Shown here: positions 3,473 to 63,500 of the stretch, in pieces
Position numbering within the stretch: position 1 is the stretch's first letter
How the letters are laid out: each line of letters begins with the position of its first letter
Assembly: GCA_043760135.1 (NCBI GenBank)
Contig: JAYUPL010000007.1
Coordinates: forward strand, 106 to 64,105
DNA from: Candidatus Parcubacteria bacterium
GTDB lineage: Bacteria > Patescibacteriota > Minisyncoccia > Phycocordibacterales > CAIZLB01
Length of the DNA stretch: 64,000 bases
Direction: 5' to 3'
The notes under the pieces: generated by a model
Told to the model about the DNA's origin: nothing
What the model saw: only the letters and a program-made list of their open reading frames with translations
The model's database searches: none
Program-made: the position numbers and the translations under genes

Positions 3473-3721
3473 ATTTGACAATAAGGCTTGCTACAACTAT
3501 ACTAAAATCAGTTTTGAGACTTTAAAACTTCTCTAAGTGCAGAAATTCGGCTACTGCCACCTACTTCGTAAGAAGTTGTTGAGATGGGGATTACGTCGTT
3601 CCCTAGAGAAGTTTTAAGTTCTTAAGATAAATTTGACACTCAGATATTGATCATGATACATTTAAATTACTACTAATGACGCTAGATACCTTCTCTAGTT
3701 GGCTCACTGCCTCGATTGGTA

Positions 3722-6394: not shown

Positions 6395-8608
6395 TTATTT
6401 TTCTATTACAGAGAATGCAGCTATAACATCACCTGTTACGATTTCTATTTTTGCTTCGATCATCAAACCACACTCTGTATCAGCTTCAACACTCTTAACT
6501 TGTGAACGTGCATGTTGCAATTCAACTATCTCTCCACGACCGATTTCATTATCTCGTCTCATAATTTTAATCTTATCTCCTAGATTGATCTTTCCTGTTT
6601 CAACTTTACCTCCAAGAACTTGTTTTGTTTTATTGGCATTGAAAATCTTAAGAACCTTAAGAGTACCATGACTTTCTTCTTCAAGAATTTTAGGTGCTTT
6701 TGATCGTGCTTCATTTTCCAACCATTCTGAAAGTTTATAGATAATATCAAATGTTTCAATTTTCAAATTCAATTGATTGGCTAAATTTTTAGCAACGTTA
6801 TCAACTTTTGTGTTATATCCAACAATAACAGAGTCTTTACTTCCTTGAGCAAGTTTTATGTCATTTTCGTTGATGTCTCCAGTTTCAGCTCGAACGATTC
6901 TTAGCTCTATGTTTTCAAATTTAATTTTAGCAATTTCTTGTTTAACAGCGTCAAGTGTTCCAACAGAATCTGTTTTCAACACAATAGGGAGTGTCCAATT
7001 GTTATCAACTTCAAGACCGTAAAGTGCACGAATATTTGCGGGAATTTTTGCAGCAGGAACTTTACCTTCATTGTTGACTTCATCTTCTAGTATTTGCATT
7101 TTCTTTTGCTCTTCAGCAAGGAGCTCTGCTGTCTCTTTGTCTTCACACATGATACAGATATCGCCAACTTTTGGGGTCTCCACCCAACCAATAAGTCGCA
7201 CAGGTTGTCCTGGTTCAAAAGTTTTTTGAGCCTTACCTTCAAAATTTTCTATAATTCGAACAGGGGAGATAGCGCCACCTGAAACTATAAATGATCCAAC
7301 TTTCAATGTCCCGTTCTTAACAATCATTGTTGCATGAATTCCTCTTATCTTGTCTCTACCAGATTCGATTACAATACATTCAGCAGGAACATCGTACGCC
7401 GCTTTGATATCAGCCACTTCAGACATCAACATAATCATATCCAATAGATCACTTACACCATCTCCGGTTTTTCCTGAAAAAGGAATAAATGAAATATCTC
7501 CTCCGTACCCTTCAACAAAGATATTGTTTTCTGCTAATGATTGTTTTGTCTTCTCTAGGTCAGCCCCAACTTTGTCAATTTTTGATACTCCGATAAAGAA
7601 AGGAACATTTGCATCTTGAATTGATTTTAGCGCATCGAGTGTTTGTGGTTTAACTCCGTCTTCGGCAGAAACAATAAGAATGGCAATGTCGGCAGATCTT
7701 GCTCCACGATCGCGCATACTTGTAAATGATTCGTGCCCAGGTGTATCAAGGAATGTAATTTTTCCATCATTGTGATTGATTTCATATGCAGACATTTTTT
7801 GAGTAATACCTCCAACCTCACGGTCAGCAATGTTTGATTTTCTGATGTAATCCAATAATGTTGATTTACCATGATCAACATGACCCATGATAATAACCAC
7901 TGGATTTTTTGAACGTATATCTAATCCATCTAGTACCTGTATGGTTTTAACTAGATTGTTTGATCTTCCGCTAATGCGTGTTTTTAATGTAGCAGCCTTT
8001 TTAACTTTAGCAACCCTGGGTCTCTTGTAATATGGTATGTACTCAGTACGAGGTGCAATGTCTCTTTTTGCGAATGGTTTTCTCGGTGTTGATGTTCCTG
8101 TGGTTGTATCTTTACTTTTATTATTTATAAATGTCTTAGCAAATGCAATACCTCTCTCTTCTATTTTTTTCTTCTCATCTTCTTTCTTTTGTAAATCAAT
8201 TTTTTCTTCTTTCGTGATCACTTTTGATTTGAAGAGGGTAGGGGAATATTTTGGAACTGGCTTATGTTCAGGTTTTACTTCCTCAACTTTTTTCTCTTCA
8301 GGTTTCACTTCTACTACAGGTTTGTTTTTATTTTCATAAAATTTAGATGCGTTTTCGAACCAATTATTTTGCTCTTCAACTTTGGTTTTTCTTGTATCTT
8401 CAACTTCCTTACTTACAGCAAAAGTTCTCGAGCTAGTTCTTGGTGCTACAGTTATGGTCTCTTTTGTTGCAGTTTTTTTACTTTTAGTTTTACTTTTTAT
8501 CTCATCTGCCGGCTCCGGTGCCTTATTATCTCCAAAAACGCTCCCAAAAGCATTGCCAAAAACCCCTCCAAATGCGCTATCGTCGTTTTGATTTTTATCC
8601 ATTATCAT
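6395..8608 (-). CDS. infB: translation initiation factor IF-2
   Basis: K/E-rich N-terminus; G domain '[17 protein letters not shown]', 'DTPGHESF'; 737 aa. Confidence 0.9.
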
Positions 8609-10590: not shown

Positions 10591-10696
10591 TCTTCAGATT
10601 CATTAATTAAGAAAGAAAAATACTGCTCATTTGGGTAGTTTTTTTCTTGAGAGTTTCTTTATGGGAACTTTAGCTGTCTTTTATTATCATTGAAGA

Positions 10697-17117: not shown

Positions 17118-17189
17118 GGGTCCATAGTTTCAATGGTAAAACATCGCACTCCAAACGCGAGGTTCTAGGTTCGAGTCCTAGTGGGCCCG
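17118..17189 (+). tRNA. tRNA-Trp (anticodon CCA)
   Basis: Acceptor GGGTCCA/TGGGCCC, anticodon loop CTCCAAA, T-arm CTAGGTTCGAGTCCTAG. Confidence 0.8.
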
Positions 17190-17237
17190 CAAATGTTACA
17201 ATACTCTCGAGTTAAAAAATGCGGAGCATTTTTAGGA

Positions 17238-17318
17238 CTCGAAAAGCTTTGCTATATTTTTGAGAACTCGGAGAGTTTGAAAAAATAGCAAAGGTGTACT
17301 GAACCTGTAAGGTTCGAC
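17238..17318 (+). promoter_or_regulatory. conserved ~80-nt structured non-coding element, copy 1 (second copy at 63381-63457)
   Basis: Shares 'TCGAAAAGCTTTGC...TATTTT...GAAAAAAT.G.AAAGGTGTACTGA' with copy 2; two hairpins keep pairing through compensatory changes (AACTC-gga-GAGTT vs AGAAC-tgt-GTTCT; ACCT-gta-AGGT vs CCTC-gta-GAGG). Confidence 0.4.
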
Positions 17319-17359
17319 TCTAAACACAACACTCTATTTCTATGGTATAATACATATCT

Positions 17360-18301
17360 ATGACAATACTCATCCTTATCATCATCTTCCTCCTCGGAAC
17401 AATCATCGGAAGTTTCCTTAACGTAGTAATATTTCGCCTCAACACAAATCTGAGTATTAGCCGTGGCCGCTCAAAGTGCTTTTCATGCGGTAGGGAACTG
17501 GAACCTAAAGATTTGATCCCTGTATTTTCATTTTTAATGTTCAAAGGACGATGTCGAACTTGTAAGTCTAAAATTTCTTGGCAATATCCACTTGTAGAAT
17601 TGGCAACTGGTATTATGTTTGTTCTCGTTACATATTCTTATTTTTTCAGTAATACAATTTTCATTGGAAACAATATTTTTAATAAAGGATTGGTGTTACA
17701 GGCATTCACACAGATGGCATATATAAAATATGTTTTCTATATAATGGATTTAGCTGTTGTATCACTTCTTATGTGTATCTTTGTGTATGATTTCAGACAC
17801 AAAATTATCCCTGATAAACTAGTATATTCTGGTGCGGTTTTGATGTTTACAAAAGCCCTTATCTCGATATTTATTTTTAAGGCGAGTGCGATGACTGTTG
17901 TGTGGGTGTTGTTAGCTGGACCAATAGTTGCTATACCTTTTGCATTGTTTTGGGTGGTGTCAGGTGGAAGATGGATGGGGTTGGGAGATGCAAAGCTTGC
18001 TCTTATTGTGGGTTGGGGATTAGGTTTGGGGTATGGATATACTGCGCTCATGTATTCATTTTGGATAGGAGCTATTGTTATTATTGGTCTTATGCTAACC
18101 AGAGAGATGCTCGATGCATTTTCAACTCATAATAATGCACTTGGTTTTAAAATAAAATTTTTACATAATAAAAAGCTAGAATATTTTAGAAACAAGCTAC
18201 CATCTTACAAATTAAGGTCAGAAATACCATTCGGACCCTTTATGATTGTGGCTTTTTATATGATCTATTTCCTAGGCAGGAATCTTCTGTGGTGGATATA
18301 A
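17360..18301 (+). CDS. pilD: prepilin peptidase (A24 family, PilD-like)
   Basis: N-terminal Cys tetrad 'CFSCG...CRTC', TM-rich, 'GLGDAKLALIVGWGLG' motif; TATAAT 9 nt upstream of ATG. Confidence 0.8.
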   Translation: MTILILIIIFLLGTIIGSFLNVVIFRLNTNLSISRGRSKCFSCGRELEPKDLIPVFSFLMFKGRCRTCKSKISWQYPLVELATGIMFVLVTYSYFFSNTIFIGNNIFNKGLVLQAFTQMAYIKYVFYIMDLAVVSLLMCIFVYDFRHKIIPDKLVYSGAVLMFTKALISIFIFKASAMTVVWVLLAGPIVAIPFALFWVVSGGRWMGLGDAKLALIVGWGLGLGYGYTALMYSFWIGAIVIIGLMLTREMLDAFSTHNNALGFKIKFLHNKKLEYFRNKLPSYKLRSEIPFGPFMIVAFYMIYFLGRNLLWWI

Positions 18302-18635
18302 AGCCTTTGGTTTTCACGTTGGTTTATAAGGGGTTTTTTGACTTTTCCTAAATTTGCTTGTCCTTTATGAACATATTTGAATAATCCCCATATAATCGCT
18401 TGACTTTGTTTATGTTTCGTATATAATAGACACCCATACGGAATAGAAATATAACTCTCGAATCCTTGATGGATTCAAGAAAAATTTCTAAAGAAATATA
18501 CTTTGAAAATAGAATAAAGATATACATACATCACAATAGATATGTAAGAACATTGTATTGATTTTGTACAATGAGCAAGAATTAATTTTAAAATTAATCA
18601 AATCCTTTCTTTTGTTCTGTTTGAGTTTTTTATTT

Positions 18636-20160
<1,525 letters not shown>

Positions 20161-20532
20161 TATGTCACCTGATTTATCAGGTTGCATCAGATTTATAACG
20201 GTCGTTACTGATCTTTTAAGCAATTAAAATTTCAACAGTTCTTATATGCTGTCGTTCATATAAGCGAAGAAGTTCGTAAAACTTTGACATATCGGAAAGA
20301 CGGTGACTCAAACAGAACAAAAGAATTTGTTTGATTAGGTTTAGGTTAATTCAAGCGTTTCTATATTGTGATTTTGTAAAAATTATGTAATACTCAGTAC
20401 ATGATATTTTTTCCGTATGGACGGAATGGAATATTGTTTCGCTTAACTTCGCTTATGAGTTGAGCGAACGAGTCGACCCTGCCGGGAAGCTTTGCTTCCG
20501 AGGACTTCTCGACGAGAGAACAAAACAAATAA

Positions 20533-20608
20533 GCGCGCGTAGCTCAGTTGGTAGAGCGCTCGACTGATACTCGAAAGGTCCTTGGTTCAACTCCAAGCGC
20601 GCGCACCA
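20533..20608 (+). tRNA. tRNA-Ile (anticodon GAT) in the 16S-downstream spacer
   Basis: Acceptor GCGCGCG/CGCGCGC, D-arm TAGCTCAGTTGGTAGAGC, anticodon loop CTGATAC, CCA encoded. Confidence 0.8.
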
Positions 20609-21434: not shown

Positions 21435-22430
21435 ATGAACATGCTTAATCCGAAAATTTTTTCACCTATTGCAGAAATAGAACAAACTCCAATCCGAAAA
21501 GGTTTCGGTGAAGGTTTGCTTTTGGCTGGTGAGAAAAATAAAAACATAGTCGGACTGTGTGCGGACCTAACCGAATCTACTCAGATGAATCTTTTCAGAG
21601 ATCGTTTCCCGGACCGTTTTATCGAGATAGGGGTAGCTGAGCAAAACCTTGCCTCTGTGGCCTCTGGTATGGCTGCTATGGGCAAGATTCCTGCCATGAC
21701 ATCATATGCCATGTTCTCACCTGGACGTAACTGGGAGCAGATTAGAACGACTATTTGTTATAACGATAGGAAAGTGATCATCGCTGGTTCGCATGCTGGT
21801 ATATCAGTTGGACCTGATGGTGGAACACATCAGGCTATTGAGGATTTGGCTTTAACTCGGATTATACCAAACATGACGGTTATCTCACCGTGCGATGTTA
21901 TTGAGGCACGTAAGGCGACTATAGCGGCATTTGAAAATACCCAAAAAACACCAGTATATATCCGCCTTGCTCGCGAAAAAACACCAATCATAACAACCGA
22001 AGAAGCGCCATTTGTGATAGGGAAGGCAAATGTGTTGTATGAGTCAAGTTTTGATGTCAATATTGACATACGATTTGACACTCTCATATGTGCAACAGGT
22101 GCATTGGTATACAATGCACTCTTAGCTGCAAAAGAATTGGAATCAAAACATGGTCAAAAAGTCGCGGTTATTAATTTTCATACAATAAAACCACTCGACA
22201 CAGAAACACTTTTTTCATATGTTGAAAAATCAGAAAAAATAGTTACAGTCGAAGAGCATCAGATTGCTGGAGGATTTGGGTCTGCAATATGTGAGGTGGT
22301 GTCAGAAAAATATGCCAAGATTATTCATCGTATCGGAGTAAAAGATCAGTTCGGACAATCAGGAACGCCGGCCGAGCTTATCAAGTTTTATAAGATGGAT
22401 GTTGCGGATATTGTTAAAGTTAGTATATAA
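21435..22430 (+). CDS. transketolase C-terminal subunit (pyrimidine-binding plus C-terminal domains)
   Basis: 'GVAEQNLASVASGMAAMGKIP', 'GSHAGISVGPDGGTHQAIEDLA'; 331 aa is the size of the C-terminal half of split transketolases; no N-terminal subunit gene is adjacent. Confidence 0.75.
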   Translation: MNMLNPKIFSPIAEIEQTPIRKGFGEGLLLAGEKNKNIVGLCADLTESTQMNLFRDRFPDRFIEIGVAEQNLASVASGMAAMGKIPAMTSYAMFSPGRNWEQIRTTICYNDRKVIIAGSHAGISVGPDGGTHQAIEDLALTRIIPNMTVISPCDVIEARKATIAAFENTQKTPVYIRLAREKTPIITTEEAPFVIGKANVLYESSFDVNIDIRFDTLICATGALVYNALLAAKELESKHGQKVAVINFHTIKPLDTETLFSYVEKSEKIVTVEEHQIAGGFGSAICEVVSEKYAKIIHRIGVKDQFGQSGTPAELIKFYKMDVADIVKVSI

Positions 22431-44276: not shown

Positions 44277-44321
44277 AATTTCTTTATGAGAACTTTATGT
44301 TGGTTTTGGTATTATTTTTGA

Positions 44322-44801
44322 ATGCTAATCGAAAAACCAAAAAAGCCTGCATTTATCCACGGACCTATCCTACCTCTGAATAAAAGAGAGGAGATGTACT
44401 TGTGGAAAATAAAAAATATTATCAAATATAAAAGCACTCATGAAAATATTGGGTATGTACCCGAATCTTTATCAAAGGACGCTAAAGTCAGACCCCTTAT
44501 TTTATCTCGAAGTATATTACATAAAATTCAATCTGATCATGGACATATTTGTCCAGAAAACATGATTATCAATGCACATCGGTGGGATTATATCGTTTCG
44601 TATCCATATAACAATGTAGACAAGATTGTGCTGGTAAAGAATATACCGAATAGTCGCAATTATTTTGTGTTAGCAGCTAACAGAAATAATGGTTTTTATA
44701 TTGTGACACATTTCGAAGTCGAAGCGATGACTGGAAAAAACTTAAAACGTCTCCTCGGTAGAGGAAACGTTTTAAGTAGGGGGCCTTCTATATGCCTATA
44801 G
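44322..44801 (+). CDS. hypothetical protein, copy C of the ~160-aa paralogous family
   Basis: Full-length alignment to copies A and B; 200 bp upstream of the MazF-like gene. Confidence 0.5.
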   Translation: MLIEKPKKPAFIHGPILPLNKREEMYLWKIKNIIKYKSTHENIGYVPESLSKDAKVRPLILSRSILHKIQSDHGHICPENMIINAHRWDYIVSYPYNNVDKIVLVKNIPNSRNYFVLAANRNNGFYIVTHFEVEAMTGKNLKRLLGRGNVLSRGPSICL

Positions 44802-45001
44802 TACCGATCTGAGACTTTTTCAAGTCAGTATGAGAAGGTGTCATGTGTCATCGGTAATGGTTGTATTATACGCTTGGGTAAACCAAAGTCAAATTGTAGA
44901 ATATTTTGATCATTTCAATGAAATATAATTTTATTTTTTCTTTGGTAAAACTTTAAAATCTCTTTATCAGAACTTTATCGGTATTTTTATAAAATTGATG
45001 G

Positions 45002-50505: not shown

Positions 50506-50716
50506 AAAATCTGCAATTAATTCACCTTTTTTAGATGGAAATATTCGTTAACTAGTTTTTTAATTGTAATTATATTTGTGTTAATTCTTCAATTTTACAA
50601 AACCACCCATAAACTCCCCATAAAGAAAAACCGAAGATTTCCACAAGAAAAGATGAAGAAAGGTAAAACCAGCCTCAAATTTTGCATTTTCTCAAAAAAT
50701 ATGTCAAAATGGTGCG

Positions 50717-62352: not shown

Positions 62353-62424
62353 GCCGCTATAGTTCAATGGATAGAACAGTCCCGTCCTAAGGGGTAGATG
62401 TAGGTTCGATTCCCGCTAGCGGCA
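62353..62424 (+). tRNA. tRNA-Arg (anticodon CCT)
   Basis: Acceptor GCCGCTA/TAGCGGC, D-arm GTTCAATGGATAGAAC, anticodon loop GTCCTAA, T-loop TTCGATT; one mismatch in the T-stem. Confidence 0.7.
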
Positions 62425-62481
62425 CAGTAGAAAAATATGAGGTTGTTAGGGTTATGACACCTTAAAATACAAGGTTGCAAA

Positions 62482-63189
62482 TTGGTCAAAATGACATATA
62501 ATTCAACTATGACACCCGAATCAATGCCTCAAGAATTGTTACCCAAAGAAGTTTTTATGGATGCGTTAGATAAAGAATTGTCCACCTTAGTTCAATCTGG
62601 GAGAATTACCGAAGATCGGGCGGAAGAAAAAAGAAGTGCAGGAATGTTAATTGAGGAAAGCTTTTCCGATGACCCTAAACACGACGCACTTGTCTTTGCA
62701 TTGGCAGGTAATACTTCTGAAAGTGAAATGGTTGAAGTTTTTAATAGGAAAAAAAATAATGCAGAAGAGGAGGATGGTTTTGCAGATGAAGAATCATTGG
62801 CTAAAGATGTATTTTTCCACACTGTTAGAGATAAAGTGGGAAGCCTTTGTGATAAGGGTGAACTGTCTGGTGAATATGTGCAAAATTTGTTAGACCGCGC
62901 CGTTCTGATAGAAGGTCCTTTTGATGATGCCGATGACGCTAAGGAAAAAGCTTTTGGGTTTTTGAAGACGATCGAGCCTGTTGTTGAATTAATGCGCATT
63001 TTAAACAATACCGAAATGCAACTTTTATCCGCGGCTGGAGATATCAGTATTTCAATGGAAGAAGTAAGGTCTAATGCTAATATTGACGAAGAAAAGAAAG
63101 TTGGCATATTGAATAAGCTTTCAGGTGTTCTTGAGGGAATAAATGGTTATTCAGAAACAATAAAAGCTGTGCGAAACAATATTTTCTAA
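62482..63189 (+). CDS. hypothetical acidic protein (235 aa)
   Basis: ORF track only. Confidence 0.3.
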   Translation: MVKMTYNSTMTPESMPQELLPKEVFMDALDKELSTLVQSGRITEDRAEEKRSAGMLIEESFSDDPKHDALVFALAGNTSESEMVEVFNRKKNNAEEEDGFADEESLAKDVFFHTVRDKVGSLCDKGELSGEYVQNLLDRAVLIEGPFDDADDAKEKAFGFLKTIEPVVELMRILNNTEMQLLSAAGDISISMEEVRSNANIDEEKKVGILNKLSGVLEGINGYSETIKAVRNNIF

Positions 63190-63306
63190 TGAAGAAAAGG
63201 TTAGGTAAAAATTTATGAAGCAAGCAAGTGGTTTATTTTTCCATCAATTTCATCCATATACTCCTTATCCATAAACAGGAAATTAAGAGCCTTTAAGGGC
63301 ACATTA

Positions 63307-63336
63307 GAAAAAGTCACCTAATTTAGGTGACTTTTT
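63307..63336. terminator. perfect hairpin terminator
   Basis: 'AAAAAGTCACCTAA ttt AGGTGACTTTTT'. Confidence 0.55.
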
Positions 63337-63380
63337 CTGTGCCAGCTAAGCAAGCCAACAGCTTGGCTTGCGGGCGGGAA

Positions 63381-63457
63381 TCGAAAAGCTTTGCCTTATT
63401 TTCGAAGAACTGTGTTCTGAGAAAATGGTAAAGGTGTACTGACCTCGTAGAGGTCGA
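63381..63457 (+). promoter_or_regulatory. conserved ~80-nt structured non-coding element, copy 2
   Basis: See copy 1 (17238-17318); lies ~45 nt upstream of the RlmI-like start. Confidence 0.4.
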
Positions 63458-63500
63458 TTTCTGTATATAAATTAAATCTTTAATATGCTACCATAATCCC

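Follow-up and report, generated by a model that had tools for sequence, protein, structure and literature searches.

A Folded Module with tRNA-Derived Flanks Recurs behind tRNA Genes of Patescibacteria and May Serve Small Integrative Units

In a 64-kb stretch of a Candidatus Parcubacteria genome (contig JAYUPL010000007.1, 36% GC; "the window" below means this whole stretch), a noncoding sequence of about 80 nucleotides (nt) occurs twice, and its two copies differ in ways that leave their hairpins intact. What is this repeat, and why does it stand where it does? Patescibacteria have tiny genomes with few recognized mobile elements, and the route by which they acquire accessory genes is unclear. 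We found relatives of the repeat in many Patescibacteria species, and with no Rfam entry it was previously uncatalogued. It is best explained as the conserved three-way-junction core of a unit of ~130 to 200 nt located at the 3' ends of transfer RNA (tRNA) and transfer-messenger RNA (tmRNA) genes in Paceibacteria/Parcubacteria. The repeat links a conserved nucleic-acid fold to tRNA 3' ends and to the boundaries of small, integrase-free defense and resistance islands, whose far end it often marks.

Two copies in the window and a covarying family

Copy 1 (17239-17317) and copy 2 (63381-63457) are both on the plus strand and are 76% identical over the unit, in agreement with an initial annotation of the window that had reported two ~80-nt copies at these positions. 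The blocks TCGAAAAGCTTTGC and AAAGGTGTACTGA are exact in both copies and occur nowhere else in the window. Both copies were predicted to adopt the same fold, in which a long hairpin precedes a short one that has a GUA loop, with folding energies of -24.8 kcal/mol (z = -3.2) for copy 1 and -26.7 kcal/mol (z = -4.0) for copy 2, and in each case the plus strand folded better than the minus strand.

To find relatives, we scanned one genome per species with a pattern made of the unpaired conserved blocks only (TCGAAAAG N36-60 GGTGTACTGA N9-15 TCGA). The scan returned 95 stretches, ~85% of them in metagenome-assembled genomes of Patescibacteria, from ~50 assemblies and with several copies per genome (for example, at least 8 in JAZKFG01 and at least 9 in JBDNIW01). 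A covariance model (R1) built from 75 copies (MAFFT alignment A2) gave 113 matches in the fetched loci, and the whole family comprises ~115 copies in ~50 Patescibacteria genomes. R1 scored the window copies at 97.6 and 91.5 bits and detected no further copy in the window. The pattern hits in Sphingomonas, Burkholderiaceae, Mycobacterium, and similar genomes were not among its matches, and we therefore attribute them to chance. Homologues of PilD, the product of the gene downstream of copy 1, carried the labels Candidatus Parcubacteria, Paceibacterota, or Patescibacteria. Rfam 15, applied to the whole window at the gathering threshold, recognized only the 16S rRNA and tRNAs; at E<=10, both copies and the full unit had chance-level matches only (MIR8041, RNAI, and sX4 overlapping the tRNA), and six extra loci likewise yielded no family match for the module. 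The same pattern found only three hits in IMG/VR, all of them chance matches in a coding region of a 51% GC phage, so that carriage by phages is unsupported. The element was absent from the full-text literature that was searched, and a description beyond that literature is possible.

The core has the layout P1 - GAAAAG - P2 - G(U)GUACU - P3 (GA NNNN GUA NNNN UC) - P1', in which P2 is the long hairpin and P3 the short one. Across the 75 homologous copies, 90.5% of paired cells were retained as pairs, compared with 74.6% in shuffles; double-change cells numbered 254, compared with 103 in shuffles; and the covariation score was 0.409, compared with ~0.07 when partners were slid. Covariation was strong in P1, P2, and P3, and all 86 of 86 P2 segments folded as one hairpin, with a mean of 15 base pairs (bp). 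The two hairpins in which compensatory changes had originally been noticed, the apical part of P2 and P3, are thus real helices, and the wider search and covariance model that had been proposed as a check produced further copies whose hairpins covary. G-U combinations exceeded A-C combinations over all pairs (57 versus 32) and also within P2, P3, and the inner six pairs of P1 (24 versus 7), indicating that the sense strand is the strand that folds. Together, the compensatory changes and the plus-strand bias favor a folded single strand over a plain duplex protein-binding site, as the initial annotation had argued.

Linkage to the upstream tRNA and anatomy of the unit

Which neighbor does the element belong to? 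Both window copies lie 42 to 43 nt upstream of a same-strand ATG, that of pilD for copy 1 and that of an RlmI-like methyltransferase gene for copy 2, and both downstream proteins use S-adenosylmethionine. These observations would suit a cis-acting leader or riboswitch that controls the two genes, which was one of the options first entertained for the repeat. However, nearly all genes of this genome are leaderless, with a TGnTATAAT-type box 6 to 9 nt before the ATG and no Shine-Dalgarno sequence (examples of such starts are at 558, 13306, 14025, 21435, 25315, and 45503), and -10 boxes stand between the element and both ATGs (17343-17351 for pilD and 63492-63497 for the RlmI-like gene); the element therefore lies outside both mRNAs. 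Moreover, the genes downstream of modules across the family are unrelated to one another or are tRNAs, one relative retains pilD without the element, and no Rfam riboswitch match was found. We consider a leader function extremely unlikely; of the original interpretation, the conserved folded structure stood, and the leader did not.

Across the ~115 copies, the conserved neighbor is the upstream tRNA or tmRNA, and no downstream gene. Of 125 tRNAs in the fetched loci, 86 were followed by a same-strand module at a distance of no more than 400 nt; most of these distances were 34 to 82 nt, with modes at 34 to 50 and 60 to 82 nt, and essentially all amino acid identities were represented among the module-bearing tRNAs. 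(In L009, L021, L030, and L044, ARAGORN also assigned the unusual anticodon ACT to several tRNA-Ser genes.) At one locus (L041), the module behind a tmRNA beside smpB has flanks that complement and copy the 3' end of the tmRNA. Copy 1 begins 48 nt past a tRNA-Trp, and its 5' flank AGGAC-UC complements the T-arm of that tRNA; the flanks of copy 2, GCGGGAA-UC and GUGCC(AGCUA), complement the 3' end of a tRNA-Arg(CCT) located upstream at a distance of 942 nt. The features of copy 1 and its surroundings are as follows.

17118-17190, plus strand: tRNA-Trp(CCA), the cognate of copy 1 (ARAGORN, Rfam, and sequence)
17171-17181, plus strand: T-loop, T-stem, and 3' strand of tRNA-Trp, TCGAGTCCTAG, complemented by the 5' flank of the module
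17194-17202, plus strand: promoter-like extended -10 box TGTTACAAT, directly 3' of tRNA-Trp (from sequence; putative function)
17214-17233, plus strand: hairpin Pa, AAAAAAUGC-GGA-GCAUUUUU, weak and terminator-like (from sequence; homologous hairpin in class ii units)
17234-17240, plus strand: 5' strand of P1 (A'), AGGAC+UC, a perfect complement of tRNA-Trp nucleotides 57-63
17241-17246, plus strand: junction J1/2, GAAAAG, near-invariant in the family (alignment A2)
17247-17293, plus strand: P2, with conserved base CUUUGC/GCAAAG and covarying apical hairpin AACUC-GGA-GAGUU
17294-17300, plus strand: junction J2/3, GUGUACU, near-invariant in the family (alignment A2)
17301-17315, plus strand: P3, GAACCU-GUA-AGGUUC, whose final U and C correspond to tRNA nucleotides 55-56
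17316-17322, plus strand: 3' strand of P1, GA+CUCUA, a decayed distal version of the 3' end of tRNA-Trp, which reads GUCCU in the tRNA itself
17343-17351, plus strand: -10 box TGGTATAAT of leaderless pilD (ATG at 17360; from sequence)

The corresponding features of copy 2 are these.

62353-62425, plus strand: tRNA-Arg(CCT), the cognate of copy 2, with its 3' part TCGATTCCCGCTAGCGGCAC at 62407-62425
62491-63189, plus strand: acidic open reading frame (ORF) of 232 amino acids (aa), between tRNA-Arg(CCT) and copy 2
63298-63348, plus strand: helix Y (from sequence; equivalent helix in other units)
63350-63371, plus strand: hairpin Pa, GCAAGCCAA-CAGC-UUGGCUUGC, -14.2 kcal/mol
63374-63382, plus strand: 5' strand of P1 (A'), GCGGGAA+UC, a perfect complement of tRNA-Arg nucleotides 57-65
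63383-63440, plus strand: J1/2 (GAAAAG), P2 (63389-63433), and J2/3 (GUGUACU)
63441-63455, plus strand: P3, GACCUC-GUA-GAGGUC
63456-63464, plus strand: 3' strand of P1, GA+UUUCUGU, a distal copy of the tRNA-Arg T-stem strand (UUCCCGC)

The outer helix P1, hairpin Pa, the tRNA origin of the TCGA boxes, and the tRNA-Arg(CCT) of copy 2 had all been missed in the initial annotation. Throughout the family, the 5' strand of P1 is the complement of a tRNA 3' segment, and the 3' strand of P1 together with the bases that follow is a copy of the neighboring tRNA from T-loop nucleotide 55 to the discriminator. At the base of P3, the GA of CUGA forms pairs with nucleotides 55-56 of the tRNA sequence, and the 5' flank pairs with nucleotides 57-65. 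The "TCGA" boxes are T-loop nucleotides 55-58 and their complement; behind a tRNA with the T-loop TTCAAGT, the module has TTGA...CCAAG instead of TCGA...TCGA, and the boxes are therefore tRNA derived rather than a fixed motif. In 35 of 78 units, the distal flank matches the tRNA 3' end without a mismatch over 16 nt, and identity ends at the discriminator base. Although the distal copy in the window is decayed for tRNA-Trp (GUCCU versus CUCUA), intact distal tRNA-Trp 3' copies (TCGAGTCCTAGTGGGCCCGCCA) are present in L037 and L066. The distal strand of copy 2 differs from tRNA-Arg by three C-to-U transitions, each of which retains a G-U pair with A'.

Upstream of P1, hairpin Pa has a covarying stem of 9 to 10 bp, often GCAAGCCAA-CUGC-UUGGCUUGC, that ends 2 to 3 nt before P1; covarying Pa stems are found in most class i units, and Pa interrupts the inverted copy precisely where acceptor stem and T-stem meet. 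Two classes of unit can be told apart. In class i, which includes most units, the tRNA is followed by a canonical terminator whose stem is lengthened by an anti-trailer and an anti-acceptor (helix Y); this helix pairs with the tRNA's own trailer and acceptor 3' strand and reaches a perfect 19 to 25 bp in tRNA-Glu units. In helix Y of copy 2, a remnant acceptor GGCAC, the trailer, and a terminator (63309-63337) pair with the anti-trailer and the anti-acceptor GUGCC(AGCUA). Class ii units are compact, window copy 1 being an example: they have no anti-acceptor, their Pa is a weak A-run/U-run hairpin, and they share a TGTTAYAAT promoter-like box. The position of the TGTTACAAT-type box is shared by compact units behind different tRNAs (12 class ii units).

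The inverted copy pairs better with the real tRNA (6.0 of 7 pairs) than with the distal copy (4.6 of 7), with 31 units in the first direction and 4 in the second, and the partner of helix Y is the trailer adjoining the tRNA, not the distal flank. These two results place the start of the unit in the T-loop of the tRNA and its finish at the end of the core, which leaves the distal repeat outside. Read from the T-loop, the order of the unit is a functional replacement copy of the tRNA 3' end (nucleotides 55-73), the trailer and terminator, the inverted 3' copy split by Pa, and the core; the displaced older tRNA 3' end follows just past the core as a direct repeat.

Several variants were seen. Some units have an extra small covarying hairpin, P4 (GCG-UACU-CGC), after the 3' box; more divergent cores were picked up by the covariance model; and a shorter, second core type exists (TCGAAAGACUUUUCC...GGAAAAGUAC-hairpin). 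This second type (TCGAAAGACTTTTCC..GGAAAAGTAC plus hairpin; L033 4150-4260, L044 ~3480-3600 on the minus strand, and L074 ~1460-1560 on the minus strand) has the same tRNA-derived flanks and Pa and shares arrays with the main type. Separately, a conserved hairpin, AxTCGAGCTAGCACGAGA-loop-TCTCGTGCTAG, stands directly after an encoded CCA, ~15 nt past the distal repeat, in L004, L037, L053, and L090, and a variant of it follows tRNA-Gln in L093. This hairpin may represent a native trailer or terminator of the tRNA or a different element.

Accessory DNA, patchy presence, and what the module may be

At no fewer than 8 loci (>=8), 0.6 to 6.5 kb of accessory DNA lies between the tRNA and its cognate module, and in the cases inspected, a remnant tRNA 3' end stands just before helix Y. 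The contents include the following.

L008, 5.2 kb: cupredoxin, DsbD/HMA, P-type ATPase, and CsoR-type repressor (copper resistance)
L090, 5.4 kb, between two tRNA-Gln-type units: TOTE primase-helicase, Fic, NUDIX, and ASCH
L074, at least 6.5 kb, ending at the module: type III restriction-modification and a Panacea toxin-antitoxin pair
L051, L093, and L094, small cargos: NUDIX and P-loop kinase ORFs

The 232-aa ORF in the window had no Pfam match and is absent from the orthologous FKBP-tRNA-Arg-module-rlmI locus L005 (JAZKFG01); it therefore looks like cargo. In L074, a match to LOOT RNA (RF03000) was seen at 6900-7029 on the minus strand of this Patescibacteria-like contig, beside the type III restriction-modification island. 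Units also form tandem arrays of two or three, with units of different core types in succession.

Presence of the module is patchy. A relative with an 80% identical PilD (L101) has the same clpB-tRNA-Tyr-rpmG-tRNA-Trp-pilD-16S synteny and no module, a relative with 68% identity has a 184-aa ORF in the module's place, and a relative with ~73% identity (L048) has the module; it is thus absent in L101 and L102 and present in the window and L048. The clpB-tRNA-Tyr interval is variable in close relatives as well (L101 1619-2428 and L102 359-1902), with a KilA-N ORF inserted in one of them and GrpB, CYTH, and NDK genes in another.

A direct repeat of the tRNA 3' end that starts in the T-loop, an intact tRNA, a tmRNA site, cargo, arrays, and patchiness form the classical signature of insertion at tRNA sites. 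What is unusual in comparison with classical tRNA insertions is that no integrase is encoded in cis, that most units are tiny, and that the folded module embeds a complement of the target. Starting from the observed anatomy, tRNA linkage, direct and inverted repeats, covariation, sense-strand bias, islands, arrays, and patchiness, the explanation we tentatively prefer, at somewhat less than even odds, is that the fold serves as a recognition module for small integrative units, which would be directed at tRNA 3' ends and would carry no integrase themselves. Folding of a single strand in vivo, a recombinase, and a crossover point are what we infer in addition. The sense strand would fold as single-stranded DNA or RNA, and the inverted copy would combine with the tRNA 3' segment to rebuild the target-site duplex, with the conserved junction as a cap. 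A trans-encoded recombinase might then recognize the fold and exchange strands in the T-loop region, so that units with or without cargo would be inserted and the tRNA left intact; the logic would be that of an integron attC site or the folded attP of CTX phage, with a tRNA gene as the anchor. Under this scheme, copy 1 would be an old cargo-free unit behind tRNA-Trp, and copy 2 an old tRNA-Arg(CCT) unit that a later insertion of the 232-aa ORF may have moved 0.9 kb away from its tRNA.

A number of observations weigh against this proposal. No integrase was found in the islands at L008, L090, L074, and L053 or in the small cargos, and the islands examined contained no integrase, transposase, or reverse transcriptase. 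When 465 ORFs within 3 kb of modules were clustered and the 148 nearest ORFs plus 30 island ORFs were searched with Pfam, no recombinase family recurred among the 148 ORFs nearest modules, although single occurrences could escape this search, in which only shared families were listed. With no recombinase gene found near modules, the machinery is therefore hypothetical. Neither a free or circular form nor a precise pair of empty and filled sites was obtained; in the comparison of the window with its 80% relative (L101), the intergenic DNA was unalignable and did not yield exact boundaries. Where different genomes have units behind one and the same tRNA, these appear to be old orthologs, and junctions conserved across orders would be expected of a functional RNA more than of attachment sites. 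There are units for at least 17 tRNA identities, and the proposal offers no explanation of how both direct and inverted copies were retargeted. An encoded CCA is enriched in distal copies, and inconsistently so (~12 of 35, versus 18 of 125 tRNA genes). Finally, the promoter-like box of class ii units suggests transcription.

Several of these points are what one would expect of the main rival, a host-encoded structured noncoding RNA linked to tRNA genes, which we regard as a serious possibility though an unlikely one. Such an RNA would be made by terminator read-through or from its own -10 box, with a 5' part antisense to the 3' half of the tRNA and a 3' part that mimics it; it might, for example, act in processing or quality control of read-through precursors, titrate tRNA 3' ends as a decoy or sponge, or bind a tRNA-recognizing protein. 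It would account for a sense-strand-specific structure with G-U pairs, for junction nucleotides that are near-invariant across distant genomes, for the orthologous appearance of same-tRNA copies, and for the conserved TGTTAYAAT box before class ii units; an inverted copy that tracks the real tRNA is guide-like, and the placement of Pa exactly at the boundary of acceptor stem and T-stem also fits. However, most units lie directly behind a canonical intrinsic terminator and have neither a conserved nor a recognizable promoter; a small RNA gene, the other option first entertained for the repeat, would be compatible with the box in class ii. Even closely related genomes differ in whether they have the module, many copies show free decay of the 3' mimic, and neither arrays with different core types nor islands between tRNA and module are predicted. 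P1 together with the acceptor helix amounts to ~19 bp, too long for a tRNA-like acceptor/T arm, and the loops are mostly GNA or other triloops rather than the tetraloops typical of RNA, whereas true terminators nearby use GAAA. The RNA might instead belong to the element, as a guide of the kind represented by the IS110 bridge RNA or the IS200/IS605 omega RNA, with the core as scaffold, the tRNA segments as target specifier, and an effector supplied in trans. The position of the module at an island end beside the target repeat, the combination of a conserved scaffold with ~9 to 20 nt that match or complement a target that differs for each tRNA, and the promoter-like box in class ii all speak for a guide. 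We nonetheless judge it improbable: no IS110-, TnpB-, or IscB-type gene was seen near ~110 modules, the guide-like segment is mostly sequestered in P1, and no Rfam match to known element-end RNAs was found.

It is less probable still, in our estimation, that the module is a nonfunctional repeat of the REP (repetitive extragenic palindromic) or MITE (miniature inverted-repeat transposable element) type, or an elaborate terminator or insulator behind tRNAs, kept by gene conversion. The copies are indeed numerous, intergenic, and rich in hairpins, their distal repeats decay, and the P3 hairpin of copy 2, followed by UUUCU, was flagged as terminator-like. Across ~50 species, however, the stems covary around near-invariant junction strands and a near-invariant GUA loop, a pattern that neither drift nor conversion within a genome produces; linkage with sequence from each specific tRNA is foreign to REP elements and MITEs, and most P3 hairpins have no U-run. 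A self-cleaving or self-splicing RNA, inserted like an intron in the T-loop of the tRNA and carrying a spare 3' exon, would explain the three-way junction with conserved junction strands and the insertion point inside the T-loop, and it would have a parallel in the frequent rRNA insertions that Brown and colleagues are said to have described in Patescibacteria in 2015. We find it very hard to credit, given that no Rfam ribozyme or intron match appeared at E<=10, that the junction lengths of 6, 7, and 0 nt fit no hammerhead permutation (7, 3-4, and 1 nt), that the upstream tRNA is complete without splicing, and that a terminator lies inside the would-be intron.

Some narrower candidates were tried and rejected. 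The hammerhead core (CUGANGA / GAAA / H) failed: the junctions GAAAAG, GUGUACU, and none map onto no permutation, and there was no model match. The reading as an intrinsic terminator was discarded since what comes after P3 in nearly all copies is P1 sequence and no U-run; copy 2 alone is terminator-like. Neither an intron in the T-loop of a tRNA nor a duplicate derived from a tRNA fits a Pa that is conserved across different tRNAs and 5' strands that are perfect antisense, including nucleotides 57-60 and the discriminator, rather than copies of tRNA 5' strands. Nor is the module a tRNA-like structure: the tRNA model misses it, there is no anticodon loop, and the loop of Pa is 3 to 4 nt. Box C/D was rejected as a reading of CUGA because the G and A of this motif pair with tRNA nucleotides 56 and 55, and a guide/cleavage-site pairing in the style of IS608 (AAAG versus TCGA) gave no pairing. 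An encoded CCA was dropped as a marker of an ancestral end or a retro-copy on account of its inconsistent enrichment in distal copies. A test for chimeric tRNAs, by excess stem mismatches in module-bearing tRNAs, showed no difference. About 85% of the tRNA genes in the window and in L004-L097 have no encoded CCA and end in the discriminator followed by CA(A).

A wider form of the integrative proposal is gene capture of an integron-like kind at tRNA and tmRNA genes of Paceibacteria. Its cassettes, from empty 150-nt units to multigene defense and resistance islets, would enter the stretch from T-loop to 3' end by means of the module, which holds a copy of the target as well as its complement and would act as a folded attC/CTX-like site or a bridge-like guide RNA together with a recombinase in trans. 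We put this forward as a speculation with perhaps one chance in a few; were it true, a phylum regarded as poor in mobile elements would possess a novel class of platform for site-specific recombination. If the module acts in recombination or as a guide, it offers a new insertion platform and a ready marker for islands; if it is a host RNA, it represents a new multicopy RNA class made from tRNA-derived sequence. Either way, the two-copy hairpin of the window is an instance of a phylum-wide system, for which model R1 and alignment A2 are a testable tool in surveys.

Two further observations concern the window at large. A 19-nt motif, TTTCTTTATGRGAACTTTA, occurs four times (0.2 expected), at 10654-10672, 44279-44297, and 44959-44977 on the plus strand and at 50610-50628 on the minus strand. 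Three of these sites are ~25 nt upstream of gene starts (a ThrRS-like gene and the ORFs at 44322 and 45002), and the motif may be an operator or promoter element. The interval 18629-20608 is occupied by a 16S rRNA gene and the tRNA-Ile that follows it, and the next gene listed, at 21435, encodes a protein; since the window yielded no 23S gene, the rRNA genes seem not to be linked.

Relation to known systems

The unit has likenesses to several known systems and differences from each. Like REP, BIME (bacterial interspersed mosaic element), and MITE repeats, it is multicopy, intergenic, and hairpin forming and shows compensatory changes; it differs in its strict linkage to tRNAs, in carrying the sequence of its own tRNA in each copy, and in being conserved across orders and not just within species. 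In common with 3'ETS-leuZ of E. coli, it is a noncoding element in the 3' trailer of a tRNA, whereas small RNAs of the 3'ETS type are single-locus sponges that have no tRNA-derived repeats, conserved junctions, or multicopy distribution.

The bridge or seek RNA of IS110 and the omega RNA (reRNA) of IS200/IS605 resemble the module in placing a structured scaffold at an element end, next to target-matching sequence. The module, in contrast, has no associated recombinase or nuclease gene, its three-way junction is closed by a target-derived helix, and there is no similarity by sequence or covariance model. Elements of the IS200/IS605 or REP/RAYT type would be expected to have a Y1 (HUH) transposase in the element or genome and subterminal hairpins with guide tetranucleotides; no transposase was found in the vicinity of modules.

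Recombination sites offer further parallels. Integron attC and the attP(+) of CTX phage are imperfect hairpins in which two inverted arms rebuild a duplex recombination site, as the arms of the module would; its sense-strand bias, branches or extrahelical features on one arm, arrays at a fixed platform, and cargo without a recombinase fit the same logic. Compared with attC, the module has no R/L box consensus (RYYYAAC/GTTRRRY), and its arms are derived from tRNA (nucleotides 55-73 and their complement); compared with both attC and attP, it has no dif-like site, and its platform is a tRNA gene rather than attI or dif. Where attC has its "variable terminal structure," the module has a highly conserved junction, and a single-stranded DNA state and the use of IntI or Xer would be hypothetical for it. 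With islands that target tRNA or tmRNA genes, such as P4-type integrase islands and tycheposons, the units share an intact tRNA, a direct repeat that starts in the T-loop, cargo for defense, resistance, or toxin-antitoxin functions, arrays, and remnants. They depart from those islands in having no integrase in cis and in being mostly cargo-free, at ~150 nt, and the inverted tRNA 3' copy and the conserved three-way junction at the distal end are not known as features of att sites. We would place the system with tRNA-targeting islands or folded att sites, and there is a substantial chance that its mechanism is new.

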